Origin: Thermoplasmata archaeon
GTDB lineage: Archaea > Thermoplasmatota > Thermoplasmata > Lutacidiplasmatales > UBA184
Assembly (NCBI GenBank): GCA_049584655.1
Contig: JBAUYF010000038.1
Location: forward strand, 5,524-69,523
Direction of reading: 5' to 3'
Length of the DNA stretch: 64,000 bases
In this document: positions 7,813-60,888 of the stretch, piece by piece
How positions within the stretch are numbered: position 1 is the stretch's first letter
Layout of the letters: each line of letters starts with the position of its first letter
Made by a program: the position numbers and the translations under genes
Notes under the pieces: model-generated
What the model saw: only the letters and a program-made list of their open reading frames with translations
What the model was told of the DNA's origin: nothing
Database searches by the model: none

Positions 7813-9063
7813 ATGACTCGGACGCCCCTGCGCGCTTCCCTTGAATCCGCTCGGCGCCTCTCGGTGACCAAGCAGCGTCTCGCGGGCCCGCTGCCCGCGC
7901 GAATCACGCCCAGTAGGATACTTTCGGTCGTGCGCGACCTGGCCTACGTTCAGTGGGATCCCATTAGCGTCGTAGCACCCTCCCACATCCTGTCCTTCTG
8001 GGCTCGGCTCGGCGATTTCCGACTCGCTGACCTCGAACGGCTGTTGTGGGAAGATAAGAAGCTCTTCGAACATTGGACGCCGATCGCGTCGATCGTCCTC
8101 TCCGAAGATTATCCTCTCTATCATTCGCTCATGAGTCGATACCCTGACTCGCTCTCTGCTTCTTGGGGAAACCATCGTACACGAACCCAGAAGTTCCTCG
8201 TCGATCGGGCGGGGCTTCGGAAGAAGATGCTCTCGGAGCTTCGGAAGGGACCTCTTCAGATCGGCCAGTTCGCCGATCACCAACGAGGGCGGCGGAGTGA
8301 GGGCGATTGGAGCTCGGGCAGCGATGTCCAGGAGATGCTCTTCCACCTCCTCATGCGGGGGGAGGTGATGGTCGTCGGCCACAGTGGCAACCAGAATATC
8401 TGGGGGCTCTCGGAAGATTTCCTGCCAAGCTGGGTGGATCGAAGGCAGCTCCCCGAAGTTGACGTCGACCGCCAGGCCGCGGAGCGAGCCCTCCGGGCAT
8501 TAGGAACGGCGACCCCGAGCGAGATCCGCTTCTACTACGTGCGGGGTCGCTATCAGCACCTCGATCGGACTTTGGCCCGCCTCGAGGAAGATTCTGTGAT
8601 CCATCCGGTGATCGTGGACGGCGTTCGCGACCGGGAGGTGCGATATGTCCATAACCGGGACCTATCGATGTTGGAATCGATTGGTACGGACGGGTGGGAG
8701 CCCCGACTGTCCTTGATTCCCCCGTTCGACAACATGGTCTACAACCAAGCGCGGGGGAATCGGCTCTTTGGTTTCGACTACATCCGGGAGCAGTTCCTGC
8801 CGAAGGAGAAGCGAAAGTTCGGGACGTACGTTCTTCCCATCGTCTGGGGGGAGAGATTCATTGGCCGGATTGACGCGCGTTTGGACAAACAGAAGGGAGA
8901 ACTCGTGATCAATGCCGTTCACGCAGAGCGGGATGCGCCTGCGGACCGGGAGGTCGGAGTCCGGATCGAGGAGACGATCGATCGCTTAGCGGCATTTGTG
9001 GGAGCAAAACGGGTGACCTATACTTCCCGGGTCCCCACCCCCTGGAGGAGTGCCCTCCGTTGA
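7813..9063 (+). CDS. Winged-helix DNA glycosylase-like protein of the AlkZ/YcaQ family (DUF1006)
   Basis: 416 aa. The N-terminal pattern (LSVTKQRLAG...RDLAYVQWDPISVV...HILSFWARLGDF) resembles the YcaQ/AlkZ interstrand-crosslink glycosylase family. I made this call from memory of the family signature. Confidence 0.5.
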   Translation: MTRTPLRASLESARRLSVTKQRLAGPLPARITPSRILSVVRDLAYVQWDPISVVAPSHILSFWARLGDFRLADLERLLWEDKKLFEHWTPIASIVLSEDYPLYHSLMSRYPDSLSASWGNHRTRTQKFLVDRAGLRKKMLSELRKGPLQIGQFADHQRGRRSEGDWSSGSDVQEMLFHLLMRGEVMVVGHSGNQNIWGLSEDFLPSWVDRRQLPEVDVDRQAAERALRALGTATPSEIRFYYVRGRYQHLDRTLARLEEDSVIHPVIVDGVRDREVRYVHNRDLSMLESIGTDGWEPRLSLIPPFDNMVYNQARGNRLFGFDYIREQFLPKEKRKFGTYVLPIVWGERFIGRIDARLDKQKGELVINAVHAERDAPADREVGVRIEETIDRLAAFVGAKRVTYTSRVPTPWRSALR

Positions 9064-21616: not shown

Positions 21617-22936
21617 TTAGTTGGCGCTACGCTTGGCACGACCGGGCTTACATTCCCAGGGTAATACGACGCAGTACACCTCGACGGGAACCTTCACATG
21701 CTTCAGGCGCTTCTTCCCGACACTTTTCATCGGTAGTTCGAACTTGTTACGGACTTGATCGTACACTTGCCGACTGATCGAGATTCCCCCTTCCGGTGCC
21801 AAGGGCTCAATTCGGGAGGCCACATTGACGGCGTCCCCGAGAATGTCCGCTCCCGATTCGATCACATCGCCCAAGTGGATGCCGACGCGCAGCCGGATCC
21901 GATCCTTCACCGCCCGCGTCCGGTTGTGCTCGTGGATCCGCTCTTGAATTTCGAAGGCACACTTCGTCGCGTCCAACGCACTCGAAAACTCCACGAGGAC
22001 TCCGTCGCCGAGGGTTTTGACCTCCCGTCCTTTGTGTTTTGAAAACGCCGTACGCAACGTACGGCGATGAGCTTCGAGCACTCGGAGAGACTCCGCGTCA
22101 TCTTTCTGCGCGAGGGCGGTATACCCCGCTAGATCGGTATACATGATGGCCGCCAATCGACCCGGTCCGTGAGGCGGGGCTCCACGCTCGAGCACCACTT
22201 CCCCGTTGTCGAGGAGCTGCATCCGATGCCAGCGCGTGTCGCAGACCTTACCTCGAATCATCCGAATCCGGATGTAATGGGCGATCTGACCGCCTTCCGA
22301 CTCGGACTTTACGTCAATGATGCCGTCACAGAGCGCCTCGAATTTTGTGTAGAACGTGTCGCTCGCGATCCCCTTGACGAAACCTAGAAAATGGGGGGTT
22401 TCGCGGGCTCGGATGCCGTACGGTAGAGCCCCGATCCGCCACGAGTCGATGAATTCCTTCTCCCCGTTGTACTGGAGAAAGATAGCAGCGTTATCATCCA
22501 AGTGGAGCCAACGTTTGTCCTCAGCGCTGTAGCCCGCTTTAGCGGCCTTCTTCCAGCGCACGGCGCTTTGGGCCACGTCCCAGGGATTGCTAGAGGTCGA
22601 AGTCCAGCGGTTCGACTTCCCGCGCGCCGCTTTCCGGACCTTCTCCGCGTACTCGACCGTCGGCGTAAAGCTGTCCCAGATGTTGAGGAGCCCTACTTTT
22701 TCCATTTTCTTGGCATCGATTCCCAAGCGTCCGAGCGCCTCTCGCGCTTCGTCCGGGAAGTGCTGGAAGACGTGATACTACGTTTTCATACCTTTTTTCA
22801 GCGCCAAGGCGGCGATCATCAGGGAAGTCTCATACCAGAGCGAGTCAGCGCCGAACTCGACGATGTAGTGACCTCCGTAGAAGAAGCCGTTCGGGGCGAG
22901 CTCGTTCAGAATGGGCACCTTGAGAGTTTCGCGCAT
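21617..22936 (-). pseudogene. Class III adenylate/guanylate cyclase fused to a degenerate (P-loop-less) KaiC/RecA-like domain, interrupted by an in-frame TAG at 22778-22780
   Basis: The C-terminus has cyclase motifs (AAIMYTDLAGYT, VKTLGDGVLVEF, GIHLGDV...GDAVNVASRIE). The upstream KaiC-like region is MRETLKVPILNELAPNGFFYGGHYIVEFGADSLWYETSL...GMKT-TAG-YHVFQHFPDEAREALGRLGIDAKKMEK..., with GGHYIVEF in place of a Walker A motif. The same frame is open from 22993 to 21617 except for a single amber codon. TAG is a common stop in this window. Confidence 0.55.
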
Positions 22937-23082
22937 ACGCGGCGACCACCGCACATCGAGGTTCTCGGAATGAACATTGCGTAGAACGCCGGATCAGGGC
23001 GTCCGCCCCGGGGTCATCGTTCAGGCGCCGTCACGTTCCCACTCGGTTACCCGACGAGCCCTTCGGGAGCCTCGACCCCAGC

Positions 23083-23658
23083 TCAACGAGTGAGCCGGCT
23101 GGCAGGTTGGCGGGGTTTCTTCGGATTGACGGAGCTGCCGGGCAGCATCAATTGCATCAATTCCACATCGAGCAGCCGACCGAACTTGAGTCCGACCTCG
23201 CGCATGACGCCCACGGTCGTGAATCCCGCTGACACGTGAAGCTGCCGGCTTGCAGGATTGCCTTCGGCGATGCGCGCCAGGATGGTATGAATCCCGAGGG
23301 CGACGGCCCGTGCCCGAATTTCCGTCACGAGCTGGCGGCCAATGCCACGACCTCTCCACGGGCTGGCCACGTACACCGATATTTCGGATGTAGCCGCATA
23401 CGCTCGACGTTCCGACCACGGGCTCAAGCCAGCCCAACCGATGACTTCTCCGTCGACCTCGGCGACCAGCACCGGATGCTGCGAGTCGTGATGCGCGAGC
23501 CACGCCCTCTGACCCTCGATGGAGCGCGGCTCGGTATCGAACGTCGCCGTGGTGGTTCGAACCGCCTCGTTGTAAATGGTCGCAATGGCTCCGGCATCCA
23601 TCGTCAGCGCCGCACGGATTCTCGGCTGGTCACGCATTCGACGATCCTTCACTGACAT
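23083..23658 (-). CDS. GNAT family N-acetyltransferase (phosphinothricin/L-amino-acid N-acyltransferase-like)
   Basis: IRAALTMDAGAIATIYNEAV...VYVASPWRGRGIGRQLV... Confidence 0.8.
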   Translation of the reverse strand: MSVKDRRMRDQPRIRAALTMDAGAIATIYNEAVRTTTATFDTEPRSIEGQRAWLAHHDSQHPVLVAEVDGEVIGWAGLSPWSERRAYAATSEISVYVASPWRGRGIGRQLVTEIRARAVALGIHTILARIAEGNPASRQLHVSAGFTTVGVMREVGLKFGRLLDVELMQLMLPGSSVNPKKPRQPASRLTR

Positions 23659-44295: not shown

Positions 44296-45816
44296 GTGGA
44301 GCGGGCGCTGGTGGTGGTAGACGTGACCGACCCCGCCCGATGGTTGAGCTACCCGGATGCTCCACGCATTGTACACCCACCCCCCGGCCCGCGATCGAAA
44401 GCGCTGCTCGCCCGCCAATCCGAATGGGAGACCGAGGCCGTCACCTATCCGCGGAATTTTCCGATCGCGATTCAAGCGGCTCAAGGGGCCACGGTCGAGG
44501 ATGCGGACGGCAACCGCTTCATCGATTGGATGAGCGGTATCTCGGTCCTCAACCTGGGGCACCGCCACCCGCGATTGACCAAGGCGCTCGAGACCCAGGC
44601 GGCTCGGGTCTGGCACGCCCTCGAGCTGCCGACCGAGGCCCGTGTGGCCTTCCTCGAGGAGCTCCGAGGCGCGTTGCCCGGACGTTTGCGCAACCACGCG
44701 CGCGTCTTGTTCACAGTCACGGGCGGCGACGCCATTGAGACCGCGGTCAATCTGGCAGATTACGTGCAGCATCGGACCGGGACCGTCGCCTTCTCGGGGG
44801 CGTATCACGGCGTCCACGGGGGCGCTGCGAATCTCACCAGTGGGAAACGGTTCCATCAGACGACCTCGTTCCACGGAGGGTCCATTGTCCGGGTACCGTA
44901 CCCCGACCCGTATCGACCGCTCCTGGATTCGGACGACACGACCGCGGGAACCCTACGGTACTTGGAACACCTCATCTCGGACCCGTACTCCGGCGTCGAC
45001 AGCATCTCTTCGGTGTTGGTCGAGCCGATTCTCGGTGAGGGAGGCTACGTGATCCCGCCGCCTGATTTCCTCCCGGCCTTGCGTGAGTTTTGCGACCGCC
45101 ACAACCTGCTCCTGATCTTCGACGAGGTGCAAACCGGCCTGGGCCGGACGGGGAAGATGTGGGCGGCCGAGCATTCCGGCGTGACGCCCGACATCCTGTG
45201 CGTGGCGAAGTCGATCGGCGGTGGGCTTCCCCTCTCCCTCGTCGCGTATCGAGACGACCTTCCCGTCCAACTACCGGTCGGCTTTCACTTGGGAACTTTC
45301 CGCGCCAATCCCCTCGCCCTCGCCGTGGGGACCGAGGTACTGCGGACCCTGCGCGAGGAGGATTGGATCCCCCGGGTCGCCCGACGGGGCGCCCAATTGC
45401 TGGACCAATTCCGAGAGATCCAACGGCGACATCCTACCATCGGGGACGTGCGCGGACAGGGGTTCATGATCGGTCTCGAATTCGTCCACGACCATCGGAA
45501 GCGCCTGCCGTGGGGGGATCGCGCGAAGGCGATGCGGCACGAACTGTTCGTGCGGGGCGTCCTGATGCATACGTGCGGCCCGTTCGATCAGACGCTTCGG
45601 TTCATGGCGCCCCTCGTCATCGAAGATGAGTTGCTCGAGCGAGGTCTCGCAGCGTTCGAAGAATCGGTGGCTTCGCTGGATGGAGTTCCCTCGGTCGGCG
45701 CCCGGCATCGCCCGTCCCCCGCGACGATTCCGGGACCGGAACCTTACACCTCCCGGCTGCCGGCCCCTGTTCACCCGATCCCGGCGCCCATTCCGCCGGG
45801 CCGGACGCTACCGTAG
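44296..45816 (+). CDS. Class III aminotransferase (4-aminobutyrate / omega-amino acid aminotransferase-like)
   Basis: PLP lysine in ILCVAKSIGGGLPLS, DEVQTGLGRTG and GGYVIPPPDFL. Pro-rich C-terminal tail. Confidence 0.85.
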   Translation: MERALVVVDVTDPARWLSYPDAPRIVHPPPGPRSKALLARQSEWETEAVTYPRNFPIAIQAAQGATVEDADGNRFIDWMSGISVLNLGHRHPRLTKALETQAARVWHALELPTEARVAFLEELRGALPGRLRNHARVLFTVTGGDAIETAVNLADYVQHRTGTVAFSGAYHGVHGGAANLTSGKRFHQTTSFHGGSIVRVPYPDPYRPLLDSDDTTAGTLRYLEHLISDPYSGVDSISSVLVEPILGEGGYVIPPPDFLPALREFCDRHNLLLIFDEVQTGLGRTGKMWAAEHSGVTPDILCVAKSIGGGLPLSLVAYRDDLPVQLPVGFHLGTFRANPLALAVGTEVLRTLREEDWIPRVARRGAQLLDQFREIQRRHPTIGDVRGQGFMIGLEFVHDHRKRLPWGDRAKAMRHELFVRGVLMHTCGPFDQTLRFMAPLVIEDELLERGLAAFEESVASLDGVPSVGARHRPSPATIPGPEPYTSRLPAPVHPIPAPIPPGRTLP

Positions 45817-45839
45817 GTGGGACTTGTGTTCCGACCGCA

Positions 45840-47324
45840 TTAGGGTGCGTAGTTGACCGTGATCAACTTGACCTCGGTCATCTCTTCCATCGCATAGCGA
45901 ACGCCCTCGCGTCCGAGCCCGCTTTCCTTGATCCCCCCGAAGGGGAGAGCATCCCAGCGAAGGTTCGTGGGATCGTTCAAATGAACGGAACCCGCTCGGA
46001 TGCGTTTGGCGAGGCCGAAGGCGCGCTTCAAGTCGTTCGTGTAGACGGTCGCTTGGAGCCCGTACGGAGTTCCATTGGCGATCCGGATCGCCTCATCGTC
46101 GTCCCGGAACCGTAGAATCGGAGCGATCGGGCCGAACGGCTCCTCGCGGGCAACCTTCGCTTCGGGCGGAACTCGATCGATCACGGTGGGTGCGAAGAAG
46201 TTTCCCTCCCCAGGCTCACCGAGCCGCTCCCCGCCGGCAAGGATCGAGGCGTTGCGGTCGCGGGCATCCTGAACGAAACCATCGAGACGGTCGAGAGCGG
46301 CTTCGTCGATCAACGGACCGACCTGGGTGCTCTCTTCGAGCGCGGGGCCCACTTTGAGTCGGCGTACACCTTCGACCAACGCACGAGTGAACGGCTCCGC
46401 GATTCCATCTGCGACCAGCAACCGCTTGGACGCAGTGCAAACCTGACCTGAATATCCGAATACGCCACGGATGGCGGCCGGAACCACGGTCGCGAGGGGG
46501 GCGTCCTCGAGAATCAGAAAAGGGTCCATCCCCCCCATTTCGAGAATGGTTCGCTTCGCGTGGCGGCCGGCTTTCTCGGCGATCCCCTTTCCGACCTCGG
46601 TGGAACCGGTGAATGTCACGAGTCGGGTCTTCGGGTGCTCGACGAGGGCATCGCCAACCGAGCGCCCCGGCCCGATGACGACGTTGAGGACGCCCGCAGG
46701 AATGCCGGCGGCCTCCGCATGGTGCGCCAGCCGCAGGGCGGTGAAAGGTGCGGCGCTGGTGGGTTTGATGACCACCGGATTTCCCGCGGCGAGCGCGGGC
46801 GCCACCTTGTGAGTCAGCAGATTCAGCGGGAAGTTGAACGGACTGATCGCGACCACGACTCCGATCGGGTCCCGAGTGGTAAACAGAAAGCGCCGCTCGT
46901 TGCCGACGGGGTAAGGATACGCGTCCGCCGGGAAACTCTCCCCGGTCAAGTGTCGGATCTCCTCGGCGGCGAGCCGGAACACGCCAACGGCGCGCTCCAC
47001 CTCGGTCCGACTCTCGACGATCGGTTTGCCGACTTCGGAGGCGATCAGACGCGCCATGACCTCGGAGTCGGCAGCTAGTCGACCCGCGATTGCTTGCAAG
47101 AGCCGGGCTCGCTCATGCCCGCTGGTCGACCCCCAGCGATCTTCGACGCCGGCGGCCGCGTCGACCGCCGCTGCCGCGTCCGACGCATCGGCCAGCGCGA
47201 CCTCCCCGAGGATCTTCCCAGTCGACGGGTTCCGCAGCGGCTGATAGAGTCCCGTAGAGGGAGGCCGCCAGCTTCCCCCGATAAACAGGGAAGCCCGGCC
47301 ATCGGCCGGAATTCCTTCGAGCAT
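45840..47324 (-). CDS. NAD(P)+-dependent aldehyde dehydrogenase
   Basis: 494 aa. Catalytic Cys in GQVCTA and the ELGG motif. Confidence 0.9.
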   Translation of the reverse strand: MLEGIPADGRASLFIGGSWRPPSTGLYQPLRNPSTGKILGEVALADASDAAAAVDAAAGVEDRWGSTSGHERARLLQAIAGRLAADSEVMARLIASEVGKPIVESRTEVERAVGVFRLAAEEIRHLTGESFPADAYPYPVGNERRFLFTTRDPIGVVVAISPFNFPLNLLTHKVAPALAAGNPVVIKPTSAAPFTALRLAHHAEAAGIPAGVLNVVIGPGRSVGDALVEHPKTRLVTFTGSTEVGKGIAEKAGRHAKRTILEMGGMDPFLILEDAPLATVVPAAIRGVFGYSGQVCTASKRLLVADGIAEPFTRALVEGVRRLKVGPALEESTQVGPLIDEAALDRLDGFVQDARDRNASILAGGERLGEPGEGNFFAPTVIDRVPPEAKVAREEPFGPIAPILRFRDDDEAIRIANGTPYGLQATVYTNDLKRAFGLAKRIRAGSVHLNDPTNLRWDALPFGGIKESGLGREGVRYAMEEMTEVKLITVNYAP

Positions 47325-47339
47325 CGGCGTTGCGCCCCT

Positions 47340-48833
47340 CTACGATGGGTCGCCGTAGACCGTGTAGTGCCAACCTTTGCGGGCGAGCCCCGTTAGATCG
47401 ACGTAGATGTTCTTGACGACGGTGTAGTCCAATAGCGAATCGGTACCGAGGTCTTTGCCGAATCCGGATTGCTTGAATCCCCCGTGCGGCGTCTCGGAGC
47501 CGATCGGCAGGTGGTCGTTGATCCACACGTCACCGAAGCGCAGCGTATTGGCCGCTTTGAGGGCAGTCTGAACGTCCTTGGTCCAGACGCTCCCCGCCAG
47601 TCCATACTCCACCCCGTTCGCGATCTCCATCGCTTCATCGAACTTTTCGAACTCGATCACGTCGAGGACCGGCCCGAAGATCTCCTTCTGAGCGATCGCC
47701 ATATCCGGCGCCACCTCGTCGAAGACGGTCGGGGCGACGAAGGCCCCCTGCTTGCGCTTGGGTCCTCCGTCCGTTCCTCCCGTTTTGAGCTTCGCTCCCT
47801 CGCGTTTACCCGTGGTCACGAAGTCGAGCACTTTCTTCTGGTGGGTCTTGTGCACGAGCGGCCCGAGGTCGGTCTTACGGCTCATCGGATCTCCGATCCG
47901 GATCGTTTGAACGCGCTCCACCAAGTGCTTGACGAACTTGTCCCGGATCGAACGGTGCAGGATCAGTCGGGTGGCCGCCGTGCAATCCTGGCCCCCGTTC
48001 ACGTAACCTCCCACGATAGCCCCCTCGACTGCGGCGGCCAAGTCGGCCTCCGGAAAGACGACAAAGGGAGCCTTGCCGCCGAGCTCCAACTGAACGCGCT
48101 TTACGGTCTGGCTCGCGGCCTCCATGATCTTCTTGCCCGTCGCCGTGTCACCAGTCAACGACACCATGTCGACCTTGGGCGAGCGTGTGATCTCATCGCC
48201 AACTTCGCCGCCGGGTCCGGTCACGATGTTGAGGGCGCCGGGGGGTAGGCCCGCGTCGAGGAATGCCTTGCCCAGCTCGAGGGTCGAAAGCGGGGTCCAA
48301 CTCGCGGGCTTGAGCACGACGGTGTTGCCCGTCACAAGAGCGGGGCCCACCTTCCAGACGGCCATCATGAAGGGATAGTTCCAGGGCGTGATCGATCCCA
48401 CGACCCCGACCGGCTCTCGACGAAAGATCGTGGTGCCATCGCCGAGATATTCCGCGGGACTCTTCGCGTCCATCGTTCGGCCGGCCCCGGCGTAGAAAAT
48501 CAGATTGTCGATGGAACCGGGCAGGTCCACGTCCGCGGCTTGCTTGATCGTCTTGCCCTGATTCCGACTCTCGAGTTCCGCAATCGCAGCGAGGCGCTCT
48601 TGCAGCAATTGTGCGGTCTTGAGATAGACATCGCCGCGCGCCTTGGGCGTCATGCGCGGCCACGGACCGCGGTCGAACGCTTCGCGCGCCGCGTCGATCG
48701 CATTGCGGGCGTCCTCGCGATCGCCCAGAGGCACGGTCCCGATCTTACCGCCGTCGAACGGGCTGATCACGGACGAGGTCGCTTCGGAATTTGCCTCCAC
48801 CCATTCGCCTCGGATCAGCATCCGTGCCGCCAT
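47340..48833 (-). CDS. NAD(P)+-dependent aldehyde dehydrogenase (second, tandem)
   Basis: ELGGKAP and the CTAATR region. The start was moved to the ATG at 48833 (MAARMLIRGEW). The tracked ORF adds a 130-aa low-complexity extension that I reject. Confidence 0.85.
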   Translation of the reverse strand: MAARMLIRGEWVEANSEATSSVISPFDGGKIGTVPLGDREDARNAIDAAREAFDRGPWPRMTPKARGDVYLKTAQLLQERLAAIAELESRNQGKTIKQAADVDLPGSIDNLIFYAGAGRTMDAKSPAEYLGDGTTIFRREPVGVVGSITPWNYPFMMAVWKVGPALVTGNTVVLKPASWTPLSTLELGKAFLDAGLPPGALNIVTGPGGEVGDEITRSPKVDMVSLTGDTATGKKIMEAASQTVKRVQLELGGKAPFVVFPEADLAAAVEGAIVGGYVNGGQDCTAATRLILHRSIRDKFVKHLVERVQTIRIGDPMSRKTDLGPLVHKTHQKKVLDFVTTGKREGAKLKTGGTDGGPKRKQGAFVAPTVFDEVAPDMAIAQKEIFGPVLDVIEFEKFDEAMEIANGVEYGLAGSVWTKDVQTALKAANTLRFGDVWINDHLPIGSETPHGGFKQSGFGKDLGTDSLLDYTVVKNIYVDLTGLARKGWHYTVYGDPS

Positions 48834-48936
48834 GTTCGCACCCGGGTGAGCCGAGCCCGGGTGAGGTAAATATGTTGGCGATAGCCGACCGTCGGCCAAT
48901 GTGTCGTTGCCAACCGCGAGCCGGAGCGAGTGCGAC

Positions 48937-50109
48937 CTAAGCAACCGCGGCGGAGGTGCTTCCCTCGGCCGGAATCGGAGCCTTTTCGGGCTCGGGACCT
49001 TGCGCGAAGAGGGTCTCGGGCGCGATATCCGCGACTTCTTCTGCGCGGTGGCACGCAACGAGCGTAGAGGGATCGCCTGGACGAGGGCGGAGGAGGGGCT
49101 CCTCTGTCTTGCATCGGTCGATCGCGAACGGGCATCGAGCCGTGAATCGACATCCCGGGGGAGGGCGAACCAGCGTGGGAATCTCTCCGGTGATCCGGTA
49201 GCGGGCGTGACGACGGCGCACATCAGCGACCGGAAGGGCGGCGAGGAGCGCCTTGGTGTAGGGATGGGTGGGATGTTCGAGCAGCTGGTGGACCGGTCCG
49301 ACCTCGACGATCTTTCCTAGATACATCACCGCGACCCGATCGGCCACATAGCGCACGGCGGCGACGTTGTGGGTAATCAGTAGGTAGGCGAACCCGAACT
49401 CGCGCTGTAAGGTTACGAGGCGATTGAGGATCTGCGCTTGGACGGCGACATCCAGGGCGCTCGTCGGCTCGTCCAACACGATGAGCTTAGGTCGAACGGA
49501 GAGGGCGCGGGCCAGCGAAAGGCGTTGGCGACCGCCGCCCGAAAACTCGTGCGGGTACTGATCGAGGCAGTCCGGGGGTAGTCCGACCGTGGGCAAGACC
49601 TCCGATACGCGCGCACGGAGCTGACGCCGGGATAGGCGAGACCTCTTCGGCGGGCGTTCCGCCTTATGCCCGGACGAGCCCAACCGCTGTTTCATGCGCG
49701 CGGTCCAAGAGGGACGCGCCAGCTGCTCCTGCGCCCGGATCGGTTCGCTCACGATCTGCCAAACCTTGAGCCGTGGGTCGAGGGAGCCGACCGGATCCTG
49801 GAAAACGATCTGGACATTTCGTCGCCACTCGCGCAGCTTCCGACCGGAGAGCTCGCTCACGTCCCGCCCATCAAACAGAATCTCGCCGTCCGTGAGGTCG
49901 TGAAGTCGCGCGATCAGCCAGCCGAGGGTGGTTTTGCCCGAGCCGCTCTCCCCGATCAGTCCCACTGTCTCGCCGGCCTCGACCGTCAAAGAAACGTCAT
50001 CCAGTGCATGGATGGCCAGCGACTCCCGCCCCATGGCCGCATCAATAACCGATCGGGAGAGGGGAAAGTGCTTCACCGCATGTTTGACCTCGACCAGCGG
50101 TGGGCTCAT
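48937..50109 (-). CDS. Peptide/nickel-type ABC transporter ATP-binding protein (OppF/DppF-like)
   Basis: Walker A GESGSGKTT, signature FSGGGRQRL (LSGGQ) and Walker B LIVLDEPTSALD. It has the C-terminal oligopeptide-transporter domain. ATGA overlap with the upstream ATPase gene. Confidence 0.85.
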   Translation of the reverse strand: MSPPLVEVKHAVKHFPLSRSVIDAAMGRESLAIHALDDVSLTVEAGETVGLIGESGSGKTTLGWLIARLHDLTDGEILFDGRDVSELSGRKLREWRRNVQIVFQDPVGSLDPRLKVWQIVSEPIRAQEQLARPSWTARMKQRLGSSGHKAERPPKRSRLSRRQLRARVSEVLPTVGLPPDCLDQYPHEFSGGGRQRLSLARALSVRPKLIVLDEPTSALDVAVQAQILNRLVTLQREFGFAYLLITHNVAAVRYVADRVAVMYLGKIVEVGPVHQLLEHPTHPYTKALLAALPVADVRRRHARYRITGEIPTLVRPPPGCRFTARCPFAIDRCKTEEPLLRPRPGDPSTLVACHRAEEVADIAPETLFAQGPEPEKAPIPAEGSTSAAVA

Positions 50110-51320
50110 AGCTCCGGGACCCCCTCCGCAAAGTAGCACGCCGAGGCGTGCGTGCTGCCCGCCGGACGCCGGCGAAGGGGCTCCATCGGCGGACCTGGAT
50201 CCACCTTACACTTTTCCCGAGCCAGGACGCACCGAGGGGCGAAGTTGCACCCCGTCGGAAGTCGCGAGAGATTCGGAACCGTTCCCGCAAGGGAAGGGAG
50301 CGGGCCGTCTGACTTGTACCGGTTCGGGACCGACCGGAGTAGCGCCTTCGTGTAGGGGTGACCCGGGCTCTCGAACACCTCCGCGACAGGGCCGAATTCG
50401 ACGAGATGGCCGGCGTACATGACGCCGACATCGTCCGCGATCTCGGCGATCACGCCCAAGTCGTGGCTAATGAAGAGGATCGAAGTGTGGACCTCGTCGA
50501 TCAGTTCTTTCATCAACGTGAGCACTTGCGCCTGGATGGTCACGTCCAGCGCGCTGGTTGGCTCGTCGGCGACGAGGAGCTCGGGTTTTTCGGAAAGGGC
50601 CATCGCAATCATGATGCGCTGTCGCATCCCGCCCGACAGCTCGTGCGGATACAGCCGAAGGATCGTCTCGGGGTCGTTGATCCGGACCAACCGAAGATAT
50701 TCGAGCACTTCCTCCTTGATGCTCTCGGGCGGATCGGGGATCGTACGTCGTTTGGCGCCCTCGCTCGTGGCCGCTGCCGGTAGGAACGGATGGGCGAGGA
50801 TCTCCCCGGTAGGTGGGAGTTGCCTTCGCGAGTAATCGAATGCCTTGAGCTCAGGCCCGAGGTCAGGCATATTGCCGGCTTCCCGTCGGCGCCGGACTCG
50901 GACCGCCTCGGCCACTTGGTCGAGGATGCGGTAGGCCGGATTCAGCGAGTTCGTGGGCTCCTGGAAGATCATCCCGATTCCGGTACCCCGGACGTAGGGC
51001 ACCTTCCATTTGGGGATCGACAACAGGTCGACACCGCGAAACTCGATCTTGCCCGACAAGGTCTTCGCGGGCGGTTCGGGCAATAGACGCGGGATGGAGT
51101 GGCCGAGCGTGCTCTTTCCGCATCCGGTTTCCCCGACGATCCCAACCACTCGGCCGGGCGGGACTTCGAAGGAAACGTTGTCGAGCGCGCGAAACGTACC
51201 GGAACCGACCGTATACTGAACCGAGAGGCCCTCGACGCGCAGCGCCAGCTCGCTCCCGGGCCGGTCCGAAAGGAAGGAGGCCTGGGGAAGATCCGGCGCG
51301 GAAGCCGCCGGTGATTGCAC
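50106..51320 (-). CDS. Peptide/nickel-type ABC transporter ATP-binding protein (OppD/DppD-like)
   Basis: Walker A GETGCGKST, signature LSGGMRQRI and Walker B LLVADEPTSALD. Confidence 0.85.
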   Translation of the reverse strand: MQSPAASAPDLPQASFLSDRPGSELALRVEGLSVQYTVGSGTFRALDNVSFEVPPGRVVGIVGETGCGKSTLGHSIPRLLPEPPAKTLSGKIEFRGVDLLSIPKWKVPYVRGTGIGMIFQEPTNSLNPAYRILDQVAEAVRVRRRREAGNMPDLGPELKAFDYSRRQLPPTGEILAHPFLPAAATSEGAKRRTIPDPPESIKEEVLEYLRLVRINDPETILRLYPHELSGGMRQRIMIAMALSEKPELLVADEPTSALDVTIQAQVLTLMKELIDEVHTSILFISHDLGVIAEIADDVGVMYAGHLVEFGPVAEVFESPGHPYTKALLRSVPNRYKSDGPLPSLAGTVPNLSRLPTGCNFAPRCVLAREKCKVDPGPPMEPLRRRPAGSTHASACYFAEGVPEL

Positions 51321-51400
51321 GCCGCATTGAACGGTCCGCCCTACTAATAAGTGCCGAAATCGAGCATGGAGGCCCCCCGAGGCTCAGGAGCCCCGGAGCG

Positions 51401-53146
51401 TCAGGGAAGGTAGTCGCGGGGGAGGGTGCGAAGCTCAGTGAACACTTCGTGGAGGATGCCGATGAACTGCTCGACGTCCTTCTCCGTATGCGCGGTCGAG
51501 AACGTGATCCGCTCGTAGTTATCGGGATGGATGTACACCCCTCGATCGAGCAAGAGCTGGTGATTGCGCAGGAACAGATTCCAGTCGATTTGCAGCGATT
51601 CGCGGTAGTTGGAGATCTTTTTCCGACGCGTGAAGAAGAACTGGAGCATGCCGTTCACGGACTGGACCAGCACCGAGATTTTCGCATCCCGACCGGCGGA
51701 CTCGATCCCCCTCTCCATCTGTGTGGTCAATCGCCCGAACCGCTCGTAGAGCTCGTCTCCTCCACGCGCGAGGATCTTGAGATTCGCGAGGGCCACCGCC
51801 AGCGAGAGATTGTTCGCGAAGTAGGTGCCTCCGAAGGAGATACGGCCTGGAGAGATCGAGTCCATGTACTCGGCTTTACCGGAAACCGCAGAGATCGTGA
51901 CGCCCCCTCCCAAGGCTTTGGCCCAGCACGACAGGTCCGGTTGGACCTTGTAGAGCTGCTGTGCCCCTCCGGGAGCTACGCGGAATCCGGTGAACACTTC
52001 ATCGAAGATCAGCAAGAGTTCGTTCTCGTGCGCGATCTCTCGAAGTCGTTTCAAGTAATCCGGCGCGGGCGCAATGACGCCGGCGTTGGCCATGATCGGC
52101 TCCAGGATGACAGCGGCCAGCCGGTCCCGGTACCGTTTGACCATACGCTCGAACGCTGGGATCGAATTGTACGGAGCGACCATGACGTAGTCCGTCACCC
52201 CGGGGGGAATCCCCGCCGAGTTCGGAAGCGGACGCGGATACTCGTCCAGCCCGGCCACGATCGGCGGCGCCTCCGCGCTAATCAGGGCATAGTCGTGTTG
52301 TCCGTGGTAGTGACCTTCGAACTTGAGAATCGCATCTTTCCCAGTGACGGCCCGCGAGATGCGGATCGCATTCATCGTCGCGTCCGAGCCGTTCGAGCAG
52401 AAGGCGACCCGCTCCGAGTTGGGAACCAGCTTGTGGAACATCTTCGCGACTTCGATCTCGAGTTCGGTCGGCGCCGCAAAATGGAGTCCGAGCTCCGCGG
52501 CATGCTCGACCGCCTTGACCATCTCGGGGTGGGCATGCCCGTTGATAAGGCAGCCGTAAGCGAGATTGAAATCGAGGTACTCGTTGTCGTCGACATCCCA
52601 GATTCGAGCGCCCTTACCCCGCGCGATGAACGGGGGAACTGGGTCGTAGGAAGCCACTCGAATGAGCGAGCTCGAGGAGTTCGGAATGTACTTCTTGCCT
52701 TCCTCGAAGAGCTTCGCACTCTTCTTGAGTTTCGGTACCAGCCGTGCGATCGGGATGGGAAGCGGGATCACCTCCTCTTCGGCCGATTCCTTGGCTTCCT
52801 TCGCCTCTTTTGACTCCTTGGCTTCCTTGGAATCACGCGCCTCCTTAGCCTCCTTAGCCTCCTTGGCCTCGGTAGCGTCCTTCGATTCCTTGGAATCCCG
52901 TGGCTCCTTCTCTTTCTCCTTCTCTCTCTCTTTCTCTTTCTCTGACTCGCGCTTGTCGCGTTCCTCTGACGCGGGCGAGCGCGTGGTCGGGACGATCGCT
53001 ACCGAGGAGCTATCGGTTTTCTTGACCGCGCTGCCCTCGGCACTCAAACGGTCGGGGAAGGGAGAATCCGGGTAGGTTGAGGTCGGAGGTACCTCCAAAC
53101 CGAGCCTCGTCGGCCGATCCGGAGGGGCGGCGTCTCTCTCCGCCAT
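51401..53146 (-). CDS. Class III aminotransferase of the glutamate-1-semialdehyde aminomutase (HemL)-like subfamily with an approximately 120-aa K/E-rich N-terminal extension
   Basis: The core (...KLFEEGKKYIPNSSSSLIRVASYDPVPPFIARGKGARIWDVDDNEYLDF...GHYHGQ...PLP-Lys) matches GSA-AM-like transaminases. There is no ATG between the repeat region and the conserved core. The extension is in frame and free of stops. Confidence 0.7.
   Translation of the reverse strand: MAERDAAPPDRPTRLGLEVPPTSTYPDSPFPDRLSAEGSAVKKTDSSSVAIVPTTRSPASEERDKRESEKEKEREKEKEKEPRDSKESKDATEAKEAKEAKEARDSKEAKESKEAKEAKESAEEEVIPLPIPIARLVPKLKKSAKLFEEGKKYIPNSSSSLIRVASYDPVPPFIARGKGARIWDVDDNEYLDFNLAYGCLINGHAHPEMVKAVEHAAELGLHFAAPTELEIEVAKMFHKLVPNSERVAFCSNGSDATMNAIRISRAVTGKDAILKFEGHYHGQHDYALISAEAPPIVAGLDEYPRPLPNSAGIPPGVTDYVMVAPYNSIPAFERMVKRYRDRLAAVILEPIMANAGVIAPAPDYLKRLREIAHENELLLIFDEVFTGFRVAPGGAQQLYKVQPDLSCWAKALGGGVTISAVSGKAEYMDSISPGRISFGGTYFANNLSLAVALANLKILARGGDELYERFGRLTTQMERGIESAGRDAKISVLVQSVNGMLQFFFTRRKKISNYRESLQIDWNLFLRNHQLLLDRGVYIHPDNYERITFSTAHTEKDVEQFIGILHEVFTELRTLPRDYLP
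52795..52970 (-). repeat. Tandem low-complexity repeat (CTCCTT/AGCCTCCTT units on the plus strand), encoding KEKEREKEKEKE...EAKEAKEAKEARDSKEAKESKEAKEAKE
   Basis: Short purine-rich units are visibly repeated on the coding strand. Both strands stay open across the repeat. Confidence 0.6.
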
Positions 53147-53429
53147 AAAAACATAATCCTAAGTGGTTCGGGCAGCCGGAACGGCCTATATATATTTGGC
53201 GTGAGGGGAGAATGCGATTTTGTTCTCATATATAGTACACCAACGCGCAATCATTCGTAAGTAAATCGCGATATTTTCAGCATTATTGCCTACTAAAGCA
53301 CTAAAATATACCCAAAAGAACCCAAAACTGGCTGTCTACCTGACGGCTCTGCGCCGACTTCGCAGCGGAAGGTGACGCAACCGACGGCTCCCGCGGGGGG
53401 AGTCTGCGAGGTCGTCCCATAGGAGCTTC
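53147..53429. promoter_or_regulatory. AT-rich island (about 280 bp) inside an otherwise GC-rich operon, with multiple TATA-like boxes
   Basis: CCTATATATATTTGG (53185-53199), CTCATATATAGTAC (53227-53240), GCGATATTTT and GCGATTTTGT motifs, and CTAAAATATACCC. No ORF. Lies between the cupin gene and the hemL-like gene. Confidence 0.5.
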
Positions 53430-53762
53430 TTAGTCGCTAACTTGCTCCGCGGGCGCGAAGAAGACCAGGAGACGAAGTTCCTCCTCGATGGAGTGAAAAT
53501 GGTGCTCCCGGTGAGCTGGGACGTATAGGACCGAACCCATCGTCACAGCGCTATCCTCCGCGCCACATCGGAACCGGCCGCGGCCGGCGAGGACGTAATA
53601 GACCTCGTCCTCCGCGTGCGGGGATTGGGAGTCCGTCACCCCCGCGGGAAGTCGATAGACTCCCGCGCTCAACGTAGGAACCCGCAAGAATTCGAAGTAC
53701 CGATCCCGTTTTTGGTGCTGCGCATCGAACAGCTGGTGCAAGTCCCACCGCTCTGCCGTCAT
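53430..53762 (-). CDS. Cupin domain protein (111 aa)
   Basis: ...PHAEDEVYYVLAGRGRFRCGAED...GSVLYVPAHREHHFHS is a cupin two-motif signature. The ATG at 53762 was chosen. The tracked ORF extends into the amine oxidase gene. Confidence 0.6.
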   Translation of the reverse strand: MTAERWDLHQLFDAQHQKRDRYFEFLRVPTLSAGVYRLPAGVTDSQSPHAEDEVYYVLAGRGRFRCGAEDSAVTMGSVLYVPAHREHHFHSIEEELRLLVFFAPAEQVSD

Positions 53763-53818
53763 GGGGCGCCGATGCACCGTAGGGGGATGACTCCTTGGCC
53801 CGTCGCTTTCCCTTCGAA

Positions 53819-55177
53819 TTATTGGGCCGAGGAGGATTTGTTCGGGAAAGCCCGCAAAGCCTCCTCGGCAGCTCGATATCCAGTCTCGATCGCCCCATGC
53901 ACGGTGCTGGCTGCTCCGCTGGAATGCGTGGCTTCTCCGGCAAAGAAAACACGGCCGTCTTCGGGCACGGATAGATCTCGTCGGTCCTGGAGTCCCACCC
54001 CCGGGGGAAGATACGAGTAAGCCCCCACGGCAAATGGGTCGAAGGGCCACCGGTGGACGGCCGTCCCGAGGGCGGGACCCACGCGGCTCCCCGCGGGAAG
54101 GATCGACTCCAATTCCGCAATCGTCGCTTCCAATAGAGGGCTGTCTTCCCACGAGGCCCTGCGACGCGCCTCCCGGCCCACGGTGAAGGCCGTGTAGACC
54201 TCTTGGGCCTCGCCGAGCCCGACGCGGGGGCGCAGGAACGAGGAAGCGCCGTCCCCCCAGATCATCGAGAAGTCGCCCCATCGGTCCCGAAGCGGGTGGT
54301 CAGCAGTCCAGAAATGGACCGCGATAGCGTCGCCCATCGCGATCCGGTCGATCGCGCGCCGCTTCACCTCAGAGAGCGGCGGATCAAACGCGATCATTCC
54401 CGCTCGTAAGACTCCCAACGGCACAGTCACGATCACCGCGGTCGCGCCCAACTCGAAGGACTGCCCATCGGTCGGTCGCTCCCACCGTACGCGGATCGTC
54501 GGCTCCCGAAAATCGATGCGCCGCACGACCGCCCCGGTCTGGATCCATGGGCGAAGCGAATCGGCACGTCGGCGCATCAACTCGGAGTACCCTTCGCGCA
54601 ACTGGAAGTTCGTAAAGCCAAACTTCTCCGAGGCCGCGCGCTCCTCTTCAAGGGGTCCTCGCACTCCGATAGCGTCCGCATCCGCGGCGTACACATGGGC
54701 GAACATCAGGTCGACCAAAGATCGCGCGGCCACTCCCGTGCGGGCCTCAGTGAGCCAACTGGCCAGCGGCAGATCGGTCCCTGCGTACGCGTCCAGTCGG
54801 CGAGGAATGAGGATGCCACCCTCGAGGGTTGCCCGCGTGCCGAACACTGGATGGAAGGGGAACGCCATCCACGGCATTCGGGCAACCCTCCGACCGACGG
54901 CAAACCGGCCTTTCTGCATCAAGGGCAGCGGGCGCACCGAGAGGCCCGTCTCCTGAATCCAGGCGTGGGTCGCCACAGATCGGCCGTGCACCATCTGGGC
55001 TCCCAATTCGAGCGGGCACGACGGGCCACGGGAGTAATCCGTGAAGGCGCGCCCGCCGATCCGGTCGCGACCTTCGAGCACGCGAATACTCCGGCCCGCA
55101 CGCAACAGCCGCTCGGCGGCGGCAATCCCCGCGGCGCCGGCCCCGACGACGATCACGTCGTAGCGAAGTCGGTTCAT
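53819..55177 (-). CDS. Flavin-containing amine oxidase (polyamine/putrescine/monoamine oxidase family)
   Basis: N-terminal dinucleotide fold YDVIVVGAGAAGIAAAERLLRAGRSIRVLEGRDRIGGRA. 452 aa. ATGA overlap with the upstream permease gene. Confidence 0.85.
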   Translation of the reverse strand: MNRLRYDVIVVGAGAAGIAAAERLLRAGRSIRVLEGRDRIGGRAFTDYSRGPSCPLELGAQMVHGRSVATHAWIQETGLSVRPLPLMQKGRFAVGRRVARMPWMAFPFHPVFGTRATLEGGILIPRRLDAYAGTDLPLASWLTEARTGVAARSLVDLMFAHVYAADADAIGVRGPLEEERAASEKFGFTNFQLREGYSELMRRRADSLRPWIQTGAVVRRIDFREPTIRVRWERPTDGQSFELGATAVIVTVPLGVLRAGMIAFDPPLSEVKRRAIDRIAMGDAIAVHFWTADHPLRDRWGDFSMIWGDGASSFLRPRVGLGEAQEVYTAFTVGREARRRASWEDSPLLEATIAELESILPAGSRVGPALGTAVHRWPFDPFAVGAYSYLPPGVGLQDRRDLSVPEDGRVFFAGEATHSSGAASTVHGAIETGYRAAEEALRAFPNKSSSAQ

Positions 55178-56340
55178 TCCGGCGCAACATTTGGGATTGG
55201 CGTCGCAGGGGCTTCTTCCGGCAGCCGAGTATCAGTATCTGCGGCTGACAAAGCCCGTCGCGTCCGCGGGTCGAGCACGTCCCGCAACCCGTCGCCGAGG
55301 AGGCTGAAGGCGAGCACGCTGATGAAAATCGCGAGCCCGGGAGCCGCGATCGTCCAGGGGTACGTCAGGAGAAAACCGGCCGTCTGGTAGTACTGTACCA
55401 TCGACCCCCACTCGGGAACGGACGAGTTCGGGCCCACGCCGACGAACGAGATTGTCGAGAACGTGACGAGGACCGAGCCGATATCCAGGGTAAAGTACAC
55501 GACGATCGGCTCGACGATATTTCGGAGCACGTGCCGGGTCAGGATCCGCGTGTCACTGACGCCGGCGGCACGCGCCGCGACCACGTAGGGTTGGTACTTG
55601 ATCGCCAGGACCTCCCCGCGGACGAGCCGAACGTAGTACGGCCACCACGTCAGGAGGAGCGAAAGATAGCCGGCGCCTAGGCCCCGCCCGAAGATCGCTG
55701 CCAGCGCCAGCGCCAGTACGAGGCTCGGGAACGCGAGAAACACATCCGTAACGCGCAAGATGGTCGCGGAAAGGATGCGGCGCCAAGGGCCGGGTGAATC
55801 CCAGTATCCCGAGACCAAGCCTAATCCGCCACCGATCAACAGCGAGATTCCCGTAATCGAGATCCCGATCCCGAGGTCGAGCGGGGCCGCGTAGAGCGTC
55901 CGCGAGAAGATGTCGCGCCCGAGATTATCAGTCCCGAACCAGTGCTGCCAGGAGGGCGGCTGCGGGGCGGTCGTGGGGCTGATCTGGTTCGGCCCGTAGG
56001 GCAGGACCGAATACGACATCCGGAAGAGCTGCGGGAAGGCGACGGTATGACCGAAAAGGTGGAAGAGGACGATTGGTTGGGCAAAGAACCCCGTAAACGT
56101 CGGGACGACCCAGATGATGAATGCGCCGCCGGTGATGAGGACGACGAGAATGAACCCGACGAGCGACAGCACGTTGGCCCGGAGCACTTGGATGAGGCGG
56201 ACGACGCCTCGATACGCGCGATAGGACGTCGATCGGCGGGACCAACGCCGGGTAGGTGGAACTGGAGACGATTCCGCCGGCACCGGACTCGCAGCCTCAG
56301 ATTCCGAAATGGTGGGCGTGGGCGCGGAGTCGTCGCTCAT
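55174..56340 (-). CDS. Peptide/nickel-type ABC transporter permease (OppC/DppC-like)
   Basis: 388 aa with 6 TM helices and a BPD-transporter EAA-like loop. It directly follows the oppB-like gene with no gap. Confidence 0.85.
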   Translation of the reverse strand: MSDDSAPTPTISESEAASPVPAESSPVPPTRRWSRRSTSYRAYRGVVRLIQVLRANVLSLVGFILVVLITGGAFIIWVVPTFTGFFAQPIVLFHLFGHTVAFPQLFRMSYSVLPYGPNQISPTTAPQPPSWQHWFGTDNLGRDIFSRTLYAAPLDLGIGISITGISLLIGGGLGLVSGYWDSPGPWRRILSATILRVTDVFLAFPSLVLALALAAIFGRGLGAGYLSLLLTWWPYYVRLVRGEVLAIKYQPYVVAARAAGVSDTRILTRHVLRNIVEPIVVYFTLDIGSVLVTFSTISFVGVGPNSSVPEWGSMVQYYQTAGFLLTYPWTIAAPGLAIFISVLAFSLLGDGLRDVLDPRTRRALSAADTDTRLPEEAPATPIPNVAPE

Positions 56341-57363
56341 CTAGCGCCAATCCACCCGGGGATCGATGATCCCGTAGAGTATGTCGGCGATCAGATTCGC
56401 GACGACGACCGAAATGGAAAATACGATGACCACGCCAATGGTGCCGGCGAAATTGTAGTTGATGATCGCGTTGTAGGCATATTGACCGATCCCCGGCCAC
56501 GAGAAGATCTCCTCGACGACCACGGTCCCTGATAGCAGTCCGCTCGCGGTGAAACCGAGCACGGTTGTCGTGGTGATCAGCGAGTTTCGGAGGGCGTGTT
56601 TGAACAGCACGACCTCCTGCGAGAGGCCTTTCATCTTCGCGCTCTTCACGTACTCGAGCGGGAGGACCTCGAGCATCGAGGCGCGCGTCATGCGCGTGAT
56701 GATTCCGAGGTTCAGGAAGGCCAAGGCCGTCGCGGGGAGGATCAGATGTGTGATCGCATCCAAGGTGTACGGCAGGTTTCCCGCAAGGAGCGCGTCGAGG
56801 ACCGACATATGGGTCGGTTGAGGGAACGGAGGCGGATTGGTGGTGAAATCGCCGCTCGTCGGCAGCCCTAAAAACGGACCCACGGCGATCGCGAGTACGA
56901 TCGCCGCCAAATAGGTGGGCGCGGCCCAACCACTGAGGTAGAAGATGCGCACGAGGTGGTCGGGCCAGCGCCCCGCATAGTGCGCGGCCACCACCCCGAG
57001 TGTGATACCGAAAACGATCATCAGGAACAATGAAGCGAGAACGAGCTCGACCGTTTCGGGAAGCGCCTGAGCGATCGCGGGGAGGACGGGCCCCGTCCCG
57101 TTCGGGTCGACCCCCCAGTTTCCGCCGACGAGCTGAACGAGATACTTGTAAAACTGGACGTCGATCGGTTGATTCAAGCCGAAATAATTTCGACACGCGG
57201 CGAGCGCGTCGGGTTTCGCCCGTGGGATCCAGCGAGTGCAGGGGTCCGAAACTCCGATGTGGATGAAGATGAACGTGATCAGAATGGCCCCGATCACGAC
57301 GGGAATGAGCTCCGCGAACCGGATCGCGATAAAGACGGCCAGGTCGCGGAGGCTCCGTCCCAT
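56341..57363 (-). CDS. Peptide/nickel-type ABC transporter permease (OppB/DppB-like)
   Basis: 340 aa. Begins MGRSLRDLAVFIAIRFAELIPVVIGAILITFIFIH..., the typical OppB N-terminus. Confidence 0.85.
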   Translation of the reverse strand: MGRSLRDLAVFIAIRFAELIPVVIGAILITFIFIHIGVSDPCTRWIPRAKPDALAACRNYFGLNQPIDVQFYKYLVQLVGGNWGVDPNGTGPVLPAIAQALPETVELVLASLFLMIVFGITLGVVAAHYAGRWPDHLVRIFYLSGWAAPTYLAAIVLAIAVGPFLGLPTSGDFTTNPPPFPQPTHMSVLDALLAGNLPYTLDAITHLILPATALAFLNLGIITRMTRASMLEVLPLEYVKSAKMKGLSQEVVLFKHALRNSLITTTTVLGFTASGLLSGTVVVEEIFSWPGIGQYAYNAIINYNFAGTIGVVIVFSISVVVANLIADILYGIIDPRVDWR

Positions 57364-57500
57364 GAGGACCTACTCGACCTCCGAAGGAGGGGGGTCGGGG
57401 TTGGAGGACCCTACGGACCAACGCACGAGGCCCTCGCACCGCCGCCGTGGTAATAAATGCCGCGGCGAGGTACGCTTTCGACAGCCAATCGACTAACGCA

Positions 57501-57956
57501 TCATGGCGCCGGCGGGGGAGGTGGTGGCGGCTCCGACAGATGTTTCGTGAGCGAACTCGCGAACGCTTCCGCATCGCCCTGTACCCGACGCTTGAGGTAG
57601 CCGTCGATCACGACACGCAGGGGGCCGGCGCCCATCATGTCCAGCTTTAGTGTGAGGGCGGTCGTCTCGGTACTTTGGGGCACTAAATCGATCTGTCCCT
57701 CGATGGTCGCATCCGCCCCTCGCGCCGCGAACCGAACCCGACTCTCCGTAGCTTCGAGTAGTTCCCCTTGAAATTCGGTCCGACGGGTGAGCGGCCCAAG
57801 CCTGATCTCGACGAGCCAGGTGGCTGTGGTCGCGGTCTTCGGTACGACCCCTACGACCTGCGGAATGTTCGAGGCCAGGAACCTGGGATCCTTCAGTAGA
57901 TCCACGATCCGGCTCGGCGCCGCCGGCAGGGTGAACGTGATTGTGGAGGTGGGCAT
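57501..57956 (-). CDS. SRPBCC family protein (CoxG / polyketide-cyclase-like ligand-binding fold)
   Basis: 151 aa with a CoxG-like pattern. Poly-Pro C-terminal tail. Confidence 0.55.
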   Translation of the reverse strand: MPTSTITFTLPAAPSRIVDLLKDPRFLASNIPQVVGVVPKTATTATWLVEIRLGPLTRRTEFQGELLEATESRVRFAARGADATIEGQIDLVPQSTETTALTLKLDMMGAGPLRVVIDGYLKRRVQGDAEAFASSLTKHLSEPPPPPPPAP

Positions 57957-57971
57957 CCGATTGGTTCCTCG

Positions 57972-59534: not shown

Positions 59535-59686
59535 TCAGGTCGGGGAGACGAGGCCGGTAATAAAGGCGAGAGGTGTGACGGATCTCCGATACGCGCGAGT
59601 GATTTCAATGGGATGTCGCGGCTAGCGACCCGAACCGTTATCCCCGTCCTCCGGTTCCTAAAAATTGTCGCATCCGCGAGGGGTCC

Positions 59687-60856: not shown

Positions 60857-60888
60857 AACCGCGGTCTCGCGTACATGGAACCTGCCCC

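Follow-up and report, generated by a model that had tools for sequence, protein, structure and literature searches.

A class III nucleotidyl cyclase gene of a soil Thermoplasmata archaeon appears to carry a recent and genuine nonsense mutation that inactivates it or, at best, leaves it truncated, a reading to which we give a probability of roughly two in three (0.68). The gene lies on the minus strand of a 64,000-nucleotide stretch (hereafter, the window) of contig JBAUYF010000038.1 (assembly GCA_049584655.1, positions 5,524–69,523). It belongs to a small, mainly archaeal family, of which no member has been experimentally characterised, whose proteins connect an inactivated KaiC-like domain (iKaiC) through a short linker to a C-terminal adenylyl cyclase. 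At codon 53, where relatives have a conserved glutamate, the window copy has an in-frame amber TAG. The same TAG was found in six assemblies and on two haplotypes, the aligned relatives have a sense codon there, and TAG serves as an ordinary terminator in this genome region.

A single gene interrupted by one amber codon

Translation of window positions 21617–22996 (minus strand) gave a single frame with one internal stop (...ALKKGMKT-stop-YHVFQHFPDEA...), so the first-pass annotation of this DNA was right that one amber codon breaks the frame. We numbered residues from the ATG at 22934–22936, since the orthologues begin MRE(T/S)LKVP; the terminal stop is the TAA at 21617–21619. The reading frame and its parts are as follows:

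21617–22936, minus strand: ancestral reading frame of 439 codons plus TAA, interrupted at codon 53 and colinear with the intact 438-residue orthologue P0001
22778–22780, minus strand: in-frame amber TAG in place of a conserved Glu codon (codon 53)
22778–22936, minus strand: 5' fragment of 52 codons plus TAG (strand beta-1, degenerate P-loop and helix alpha-1), carried by NCBI as a separate hypothetical protein in three metagenome-assembled genomes, or MAGs (MGA8512895.1 and two others)
21617–22726, minus strand: 3' fragment in the NCBI version, 369 residues from an internal TTG (Leu71), protein MGA8512894.1 on a 71-kb Thermoplasmata MAG contig
21926–21928, minus strand: sole polymorphic site among the assemblies, CAC (His337) in the window and L003 and Leu in L001, L004 and L005

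Identity to P0001 is about 94% over the 52 codons upstream of the TAG and about 87% over the remainder. Because both sides of the TAG match one continuous protein in relatives, the locus is a single interrupted gene and not a chance pairing of two open reading frames. Relative to the P0001 locus (L002), the gene contains no frameshift and no second stop. NCBI currently carries it as two separate coding sequences, and the Logan gene calls start the 3' fragment at the ATG at 22703–22705 instead (362 residues); a single interrupted gene would describe the locus better in annotation than the present "hypothetical protein" followed by a 5'-truncated cyclase. No paralogue of the interrupted gene was found within the window. 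A crude heuristic based on G+C content at third codon positions (GC3) was used to look for further interrupted genes in the window, and all of its candidates lay inside opposite-strand genes or at gene boundaries. The 90%-identity database cluster of the 52-residue fragment also lists a 585-residue threonyl-tRNA synthetase (P0125), which we rejected as a relative and attribute to a clustering artefact.

The stop codon recurs in separate assemblies

Besides the window, we considered contig L001 (GCA_049280115.1), a 203-kb NCBI contig and three Logan contigs, which brings the TAG to six assemblies, three of them NCBI MAG contigs and the others Logan assemblies of single runs (SRR28061317, SRR28012030 and SRR28061326). 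The codon was read in the DNA of L001, L003, L004 and L005, and the 203-kb contig was counted by its identical truncated gene calls. L001 and the three Logan contigs are 99.96–100% identical to the window, and each has ...ACG TAG TAT... at the site. The His/Leu337 single-nucleotide polymorphism (SNP) is the only difference across up to 7.1 kb, and both haplotypes have the TAG. A database of about 15 billion proteins yielded no intact allele of this species among its hits; the species' own protein cluster has four members, every one of them truncated, as are all hits above 90% identity. Exact-pattern scans of genome and metagenome contigs for such an allele, with the first base of the codon left free, gave no match of any kind and so carry no information on this point.

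That the genome really reads GAG, with the T a sequencing or assembly error, is a suggestion that draws on the nature of the data, every dataset being a short-read metagenome assembly and the samples being apparently related. Against it, the six contigs were assembled separately, from at least three sequencing runs and by two pipelines, two haplotypes told apart by a nearby SNP share the codon, and the surrounding sequence contains no homopolymer or repeat prone to systematic error. Recurrence in six assemblies and on two haplotypes excludes a random error for practical purposes. The assembly error that the first-pass annotation had listed as an option can effectively be set aside, and we regard an artefact of any kind as very improbable.

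The ancestral codon and the age of the mutation

The nearest intact relative, P0001 (438 residues, 88% identical in protein and 82% in DNA), has GAG at this position (L002). Glutamate occupies the site in 27 of the 29 aligned homologues, within the motif KTEYHVFQH; the other two have Ala and Leu. The check for a sense codon in orthologues proposed with the initial annotation therefore gave a clear answer, and on the aligned codons the change is a single G-to-T transversion from GAG (Glu53) to TAG.

The ratio of nonsynonymous to synonymous substitution rates (dN/dS) against L002 is 0.093 overall, at a synonymous divergence (dS) of 0.78. The 52 upstream codons taken separately stand at 0.035, and the rest of the N-terminal domain and the cyclase domain at 0.10 each. 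As read from these substitution rates, the gene has been under strong purifying selection nearly throughout its history. The nonsense mutation is recent on the same kind of evidence, because the gene bears no other lesion and its dN/dS against the intact relative is 0.09. Among the explanations offered by the first-pass annotation, that of a recent pseudogene is favoured by these results together with the GAG/Glu of the orthologues.

We polarised the 58 amino-acid differences from P0001 using 25 outgroup sequences. The window lineage has changed two family-invariant residues (R259G and E280D) and two near-invariant ones (F313V and Y90F), and the P0001 lineage no invariant and two near-invariant residues, counts that are too small for significance. 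R259G (22160–22162) and E280D (22097–22099) affect positions invariant in all 25 outgroups, F313V (21998–22000) a position that is 96% conserved, and all three lie within or border the cyclase domain. These three changes may reflect early relaxed constraint after the nonsense mutation, in numbers too small to test.

Upstream of the gene, comparison of window positions 22937–23000 (minus strand) with L002:300–362 showed that the blocks AATGTTCATTCC, CTCGATGTG and GGTCGCCGCG-Y-ATG are kept just 5' of the start, and that the sequence farther upstream has diverged. The conserved blocks may represent a promoter or 5' leader that is still intact in the interrupted gene.

The C-terminal domain is a complete class III cyclase

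The domains and motifs encoded on the two sides of the stop are as follows:

21662–22162, minus strand: class III (IIIc-like) nucleotidyl cyclase catalytic domain, residues 259–425
22187–22936, minus strand: inactivated KaiC-like (RecA-fold) domain, residues 1–250
22826–22852, minus strand: degenerate Walker A position GADSLWYET, with no GK[ST]; Ser32, Trp34 and Glu36 are family-invariant
22760–22765, minus strand: Gln58-His59, where KaiC has its catalytic Glu pair (KaiC VTFEE(T) aligned with HVFQH)
22490–22507, minus strand: retained Walker-B-like LHLDDN; His145 and Asp147 are family-invariant

The C-terminal domain has the cyclase homology-domain fold. Residues 263–421 match the Pfam family Guanylate_cyc (PF00211) with 64 bits against a cut-off of 21.9, and a phmmer search matched PDB entry 3mr7 at 1.7e-30, as well as the class IIIc enzymes Mycobacterium avium Ma1120 and Mycobacterium tuberculosis Rv1900c. 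The full catalytic set is present and consists of the metal-binding aspartates D268 and D311, the adenine-specifying K307 (KTLGD) and D364 (DILGD), and the transition-state residues N371 and R375. In the alignment with 3mr7 and Ma1120 these six residues are matched, and the family shows little or no variation at them. The claim of a complete C-terminal class III cyclase with the lysine and aspartate of the adenine pair thus held. Applied to this sequence, the established class III rules predict an active, homodimeric adenylyl cyclase.

A search with PADLOC returned matches to PycC, the cyclase of Pycsar antiphage systems, all of them weak (31–34 bits). The adenine-specifying Lys/Asp pair speaks against an antiphage pyrimidine cyclase in place of a housekeeping signalling adenylyl cyclase. 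Nor does any cyclic-nucleotide-binding effector gene adjoin the cyclase gene, here or at three other loci of the family, and we hold a Pycsar-type role to be very unlikely.

The N-terminal domain is an inactivated KaiC-like module

The N-terminal domain has a KaiC-like RecA fold. Comparison with KaiC profiles, a check suggested by the first-pass annotation, succeeded for the family and fell short for the window copy by itself: all 20 family members tested match the Pfam family KaiC (PF06745; best 5.9e-9), whereas the window copy alone scores 23.2 bits, under the 26.6 cut-off. A profile built from the family matches KaiC (4e-7), PH0284, PH0186 and SSO2452 colinearly. The AlphaFold2 model of an intact orthologue, with a confidence score (predicted local distance difference test, pLDDT) of 90.8, places a strand at residues 23–28 and a helix from residue 34.

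The motifs expected of an active KaiC-type ATPase are largely lost. At the Walker A position the family consensus is DPDSLWYETS, following the pattern (D/G)xDSLWYE(T/S), with no Lys-Ser/Thr. A KaiC-like N-terminus without a Walker A motif had been proposed from the window sequence and is borne out, with one correction to the placement: GGHYIVEF, which had been put at the Walker A position, is the beta-1 strand before the P-loop, and the Walker A position is the next segment, GADSLWYE(T). The catalytic Glu pair that follows beta-2 in KaiC (E77/E78) is also lost, KaiC VTFEET aligning with HVFQH(F)P of the family. The Walker B aspartate is kept (KaiC RRVSIDS, family RWLHIDDN). The KaiC stretches in this motif alignment agree with those in the family-profile alignment.

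A passage of PMC5847659, citing Makarova, Galperin and Koonin 2017, already gives the name "iKaiC" to inactivated KaiC-like domains of archaeal signalling proteins. The N-terminal domain is homologous to KaiC, has lost ATPase motifs and is joined to signalling outputs. These are the marks of iKaiC, and we class it here as an ATPase-dead KaiC-like module.

TAG is an ordinary stop codon in this genome region

We selected 53 putative genes of the window by length and GC3. In this DNA of 62% G+C, TAG terminates 23 of them, TGA 20 and TAA 10. Genes that end in TAG finish where their Pfam profiles do, as for Peptidase_S9 (profile match to residue 595 of a 599-residue protein), Ring_hydroxyl_A (385 of 388) and Aldedh (606 of 627). 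No tRNA gene was found in the 64-kb window, and no Rfam family matched there. The predicted fold of the 130 nucleotides that follow the interrupting TAG is no more stable than that of shuffled sequence (z = -0.63).

Some Thermoplasmata (Methanomassiliicoccales) use pyrrolysine, and it is on this ground that the TAG might be taken for pyrrolysine or for an otherwise recoded, programmed sense codon. Pyrrolysine users, however, deplete TAG, and here it terminates 43% of the putative genes. The homologues have Glu at the site, neither Lys nor TAG, the interrupted gene is no methylamine methyltransferase, and the window is without a tRNA gene. Given that more of these genes end in TAG than in either other stop, we consider pyrrolysine very unlikely, in agreement with the initial annotation, and genome-wide recoding likewise; of all the explanations we weighed we give this one the least credence.

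Loss, truncation or readthrough

We favour a real and recent nonsense mutation in which one G-to-T change turned the GAG of Glu53 into TAG in this soil Thermoplasmata population. Because TAG is a normal terminator here, full-length translation would end after 52 residues. The gene would then amount to a natural knockout and count as a young pseudogene, giving at most a poorly initiated product of 362–369 residues that would lack the central beta-1/alpha-1/beta-2 of the RecA core. No natural family member begins downstream of beta-2. In the intact relatives, the cyclase domains would be expected to homodimerise head-to-tail and to convert ATP to cyclic AMP (cAMP). Their iKaiC domain would no longer hydrolyse ATP and would act as a regulatory or oligomerising input that sets cyclase activity through binding of a ligand or partner around the conserved cluster S32/W34/E36/H55/H145/D147.

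Several points weigh against this account. The 5' fragment and the promoter-proximal region are undecayed, with a very low dN/dS, which fits a recent mutation and continued function equally. The allele is apparently fixed in every sample, as can happen with a neutral or deleterious knockout and as would also be expected of a tolerated or useful variant. The regulatory role that we ascribe to iKaiC is drawn from domain architecture only.

The strongest competitor, which we still consider unlikely, holds that translation begins anew at the internal TTG (22726) or ATG (22705) and yields a functional 362–369-residue cyclase without, or with a crippled, iKaiC regulator, so that the mutation would alter regulation instead of abolishing function. 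Such an open reading frame was proposed by both gene callers, the cyclase domain keeps all six catalytic residues, solved structures such as 3mr7 and the cyclase homology domain of Rv1900c show class III cyclase domains folding on their own, and the allele is fixed across the six assemblies. Without beta-1, alpha-1 and beta-2 (elements 23–56 of the model), though, the remaining 180-residue N-terminal part would probably misfold. Orthologues conserve the proposed starts as internal sense codons (Leu71 and Met78), no natural family member has its N-terminus there, and inspection by eye revealed no obvious ribosome-binding motif upstream. In the window lineage, moreover, the start of the cyclase domain carries two substitutions at family-invariant positions, R259G and E280D.

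Somewhat less probable again is occasional decoding of the TAG by a near-cognate or suppressor tRNA, by which the full-length protein would persist, possibly with its expression kept low. Very strong purifying selection on the 52 upstream codons (dN/dS 0.035), the lack of additional lesions and fixation of the allele on two haplotypes would all suit such readthrough. The low dN/dS, however, spans a long branch (dS 0.78) and is blind to a recent event. TAG is also the most used terminator of the window and ends genes at the expected points, no stable structure lies 3' of the stop, the window holds no tRNA gene, and the other aligned family members have no stop at this or any position. Broader still is the proposal that low-level readthrough or reassembly of the fragments supplies full-length iKaiC-cyclase, that the fixed stop works as an expression throttle and that the intact family is an archaeal cAMP synthase under an ATPase-dead KaiC module; taken as a whole, we see this combination as a long shot.

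A small, mainly archaeal family with several architectures

We searched 1.84 billion representative proteins with a profile of the N-terminal domain and obtained 478 matches at E<=1e-3, 221 at E<=1e-10 and 82 at E<=1e-30. Among close relatives the commonest architecture is the module followed by the cyclase (about 420–450 residues). The module also occurs alone (about 240–280 residues), after the cyclase in reversed order (P0061, P0067 and P0078), in module-cyclase-TPR proteins of about 880 residues (P0126, P0128 and P0148) and in module-AAA ATPase proteins of about 560 residues (P0130 and P0154). Independent fusions in both orders suggest, at the level of domain arrangement, that module and cyclase are functionally coupled. 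Occurrence of the fusion in both orders and of the module with other outputs supports, and does not prove, the view of the module as a regulatory or assembly input and of the cyclase as an output.

Six further proteins (P0056, P0064, P0075, P0083, P0091 and P0106) carry a module 60–68% identical to that of the window, followed by a conserved tail of about 110 residues and no cyclase. The tail has the motif ...AFDFLVSSFIDDYMRRRL..SGWRSLVQIGEACKI.QG.LYGRQGRYGNLVEELI.RGLIETRTF.GHRGRGGEV..VRVAYDK.PVK and gave no Pfam match, even at E = 10. Its AlphaFold2 model, of low confidence (pLDDT 40–65), shows the order helix-helix-helix-strand-strand, which might be that of a winged helix.

Named sources of the family are MAGs of Thermoplasmata, Nitrososphaerales and Bathyarchaeia, most of them obtained in soil and peat projects. 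Within the GTDB species representatives, only two MAGs, both of Nitrososphaerales, yielded the full fusion. Full-text literature searches that joined KaiC and adenylate cyclase with archaea turned up no description of a fusion between a KaiC-like domain and a class III cyclase. The fusion is a small, mainly archaeal, recurrent family known from metagenomes and is not unique to the window. Its earlier description as unusual in archaea therefore stands for cultured archaea and the literature, and does not extend to metagenomes, where the family recurs in a small set of MAGs.

Soil Thermoplasmata and their relatives often have several class III cyclase-domain genes per genome, some of them a few kb apart (L086:413–1660; L025/L048 and L040/L073). 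With other copies present, losing one could be tolerated.

Gene neighbourhoods showed no conservation across four loci. In the window, the neighbours of the interrupted gene encode a GNAT acetyltransferase, a pyridoxal phosphate-dependent decarboxylase and ApbA. The GNAT gene (23083–23658, minus strand) lies directly upstream on the same strand, and the distant family member P0053 has two GNAT genes upstream (L087:3355–4456). An AlkZ-like glycosylase gene is found in the window (7813–9063) and also adjoins the gene for P0011 (L086). The shared GNAT and AlkZ-like neighbours are probably coincidental, both families being abundant. Elsewhere in the window, at about 44300–62100, there is a dense run of genes for amine and amino-acid catabolism, which includes three class III aminotransferases, two aldehyde dehydrogenases, two flavin amine oxidases, a Rieske ring-hydroxylating oxygenase alpha subunit and an oligopeptide ABC ATPase. 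This run may be a polyamine or amine utilisation island.

Significance and comparison with known systems

The broken copy is itself of little importance: the break is ordinary, and its consequence would be the strain-level loss of one signalling gene. The family merits a modest note. To our knowledge, the archaeal CYTH "class IV cyclases" turned out not to be cyclases. According to a 2023 review (PMC10249747), proteins for the synthesis, breakdown or sensing of cAMP had by that date yet to be characterised in archaea. Intact members such as P0001, with a full catalytic set and an ATPase-dead KaiC-like module, are easy candidates for testing archaeal cAMP synthesis, and also for testing the proposal that KaiC-like domains serve as archaeal signalling hubs. 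As a target in the search for archaeal cAMP synthases, the family is reasonable and not surprising.

The closest parallels on the cyclase side are the class IIIc enzymes Rv1900c/LipJ, Ma1120, Rv1264 and 3mr7 (the last a structural-genomics entry), which share with the family the six catalytic residues, including the Lys/Asp adenine pair, and the order of a regulatory N-terminal domain followed by a C-terminal cyclase. The regulatory domains differ, being an inactivated KaiC-like RecA fold here and an alpha/beta-hydrolase or pH-sensing helical domain in the class IIIc bacterial proteins. The hosts are archaeal here and bacterial there, and the window copy is in addition interrupted by a stop. 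On the N-terminal side, the comparison is with the archaeal KaiC-like ATPases (PH0284, PH0186, SSO2452 and FlaH/ArlH) and with the iKaiC domains of archaeal signalling proteins, the latter resembling the present family in their lost ATPase motifs and their fusion to signalling outputs. Unlike these, the subfamily described here has invariant motifs of its own (DSLWYETS, YHVFQH, HIDDN, CDGIID and FDSRWH). Elongator Elp4/Elp6 and the N-terminal domain of BcsE are likewise RecA-fold regulators without a P-loop; their likeness to the iKaiC module is structural and distant only, and their partners and biology are unrelated.

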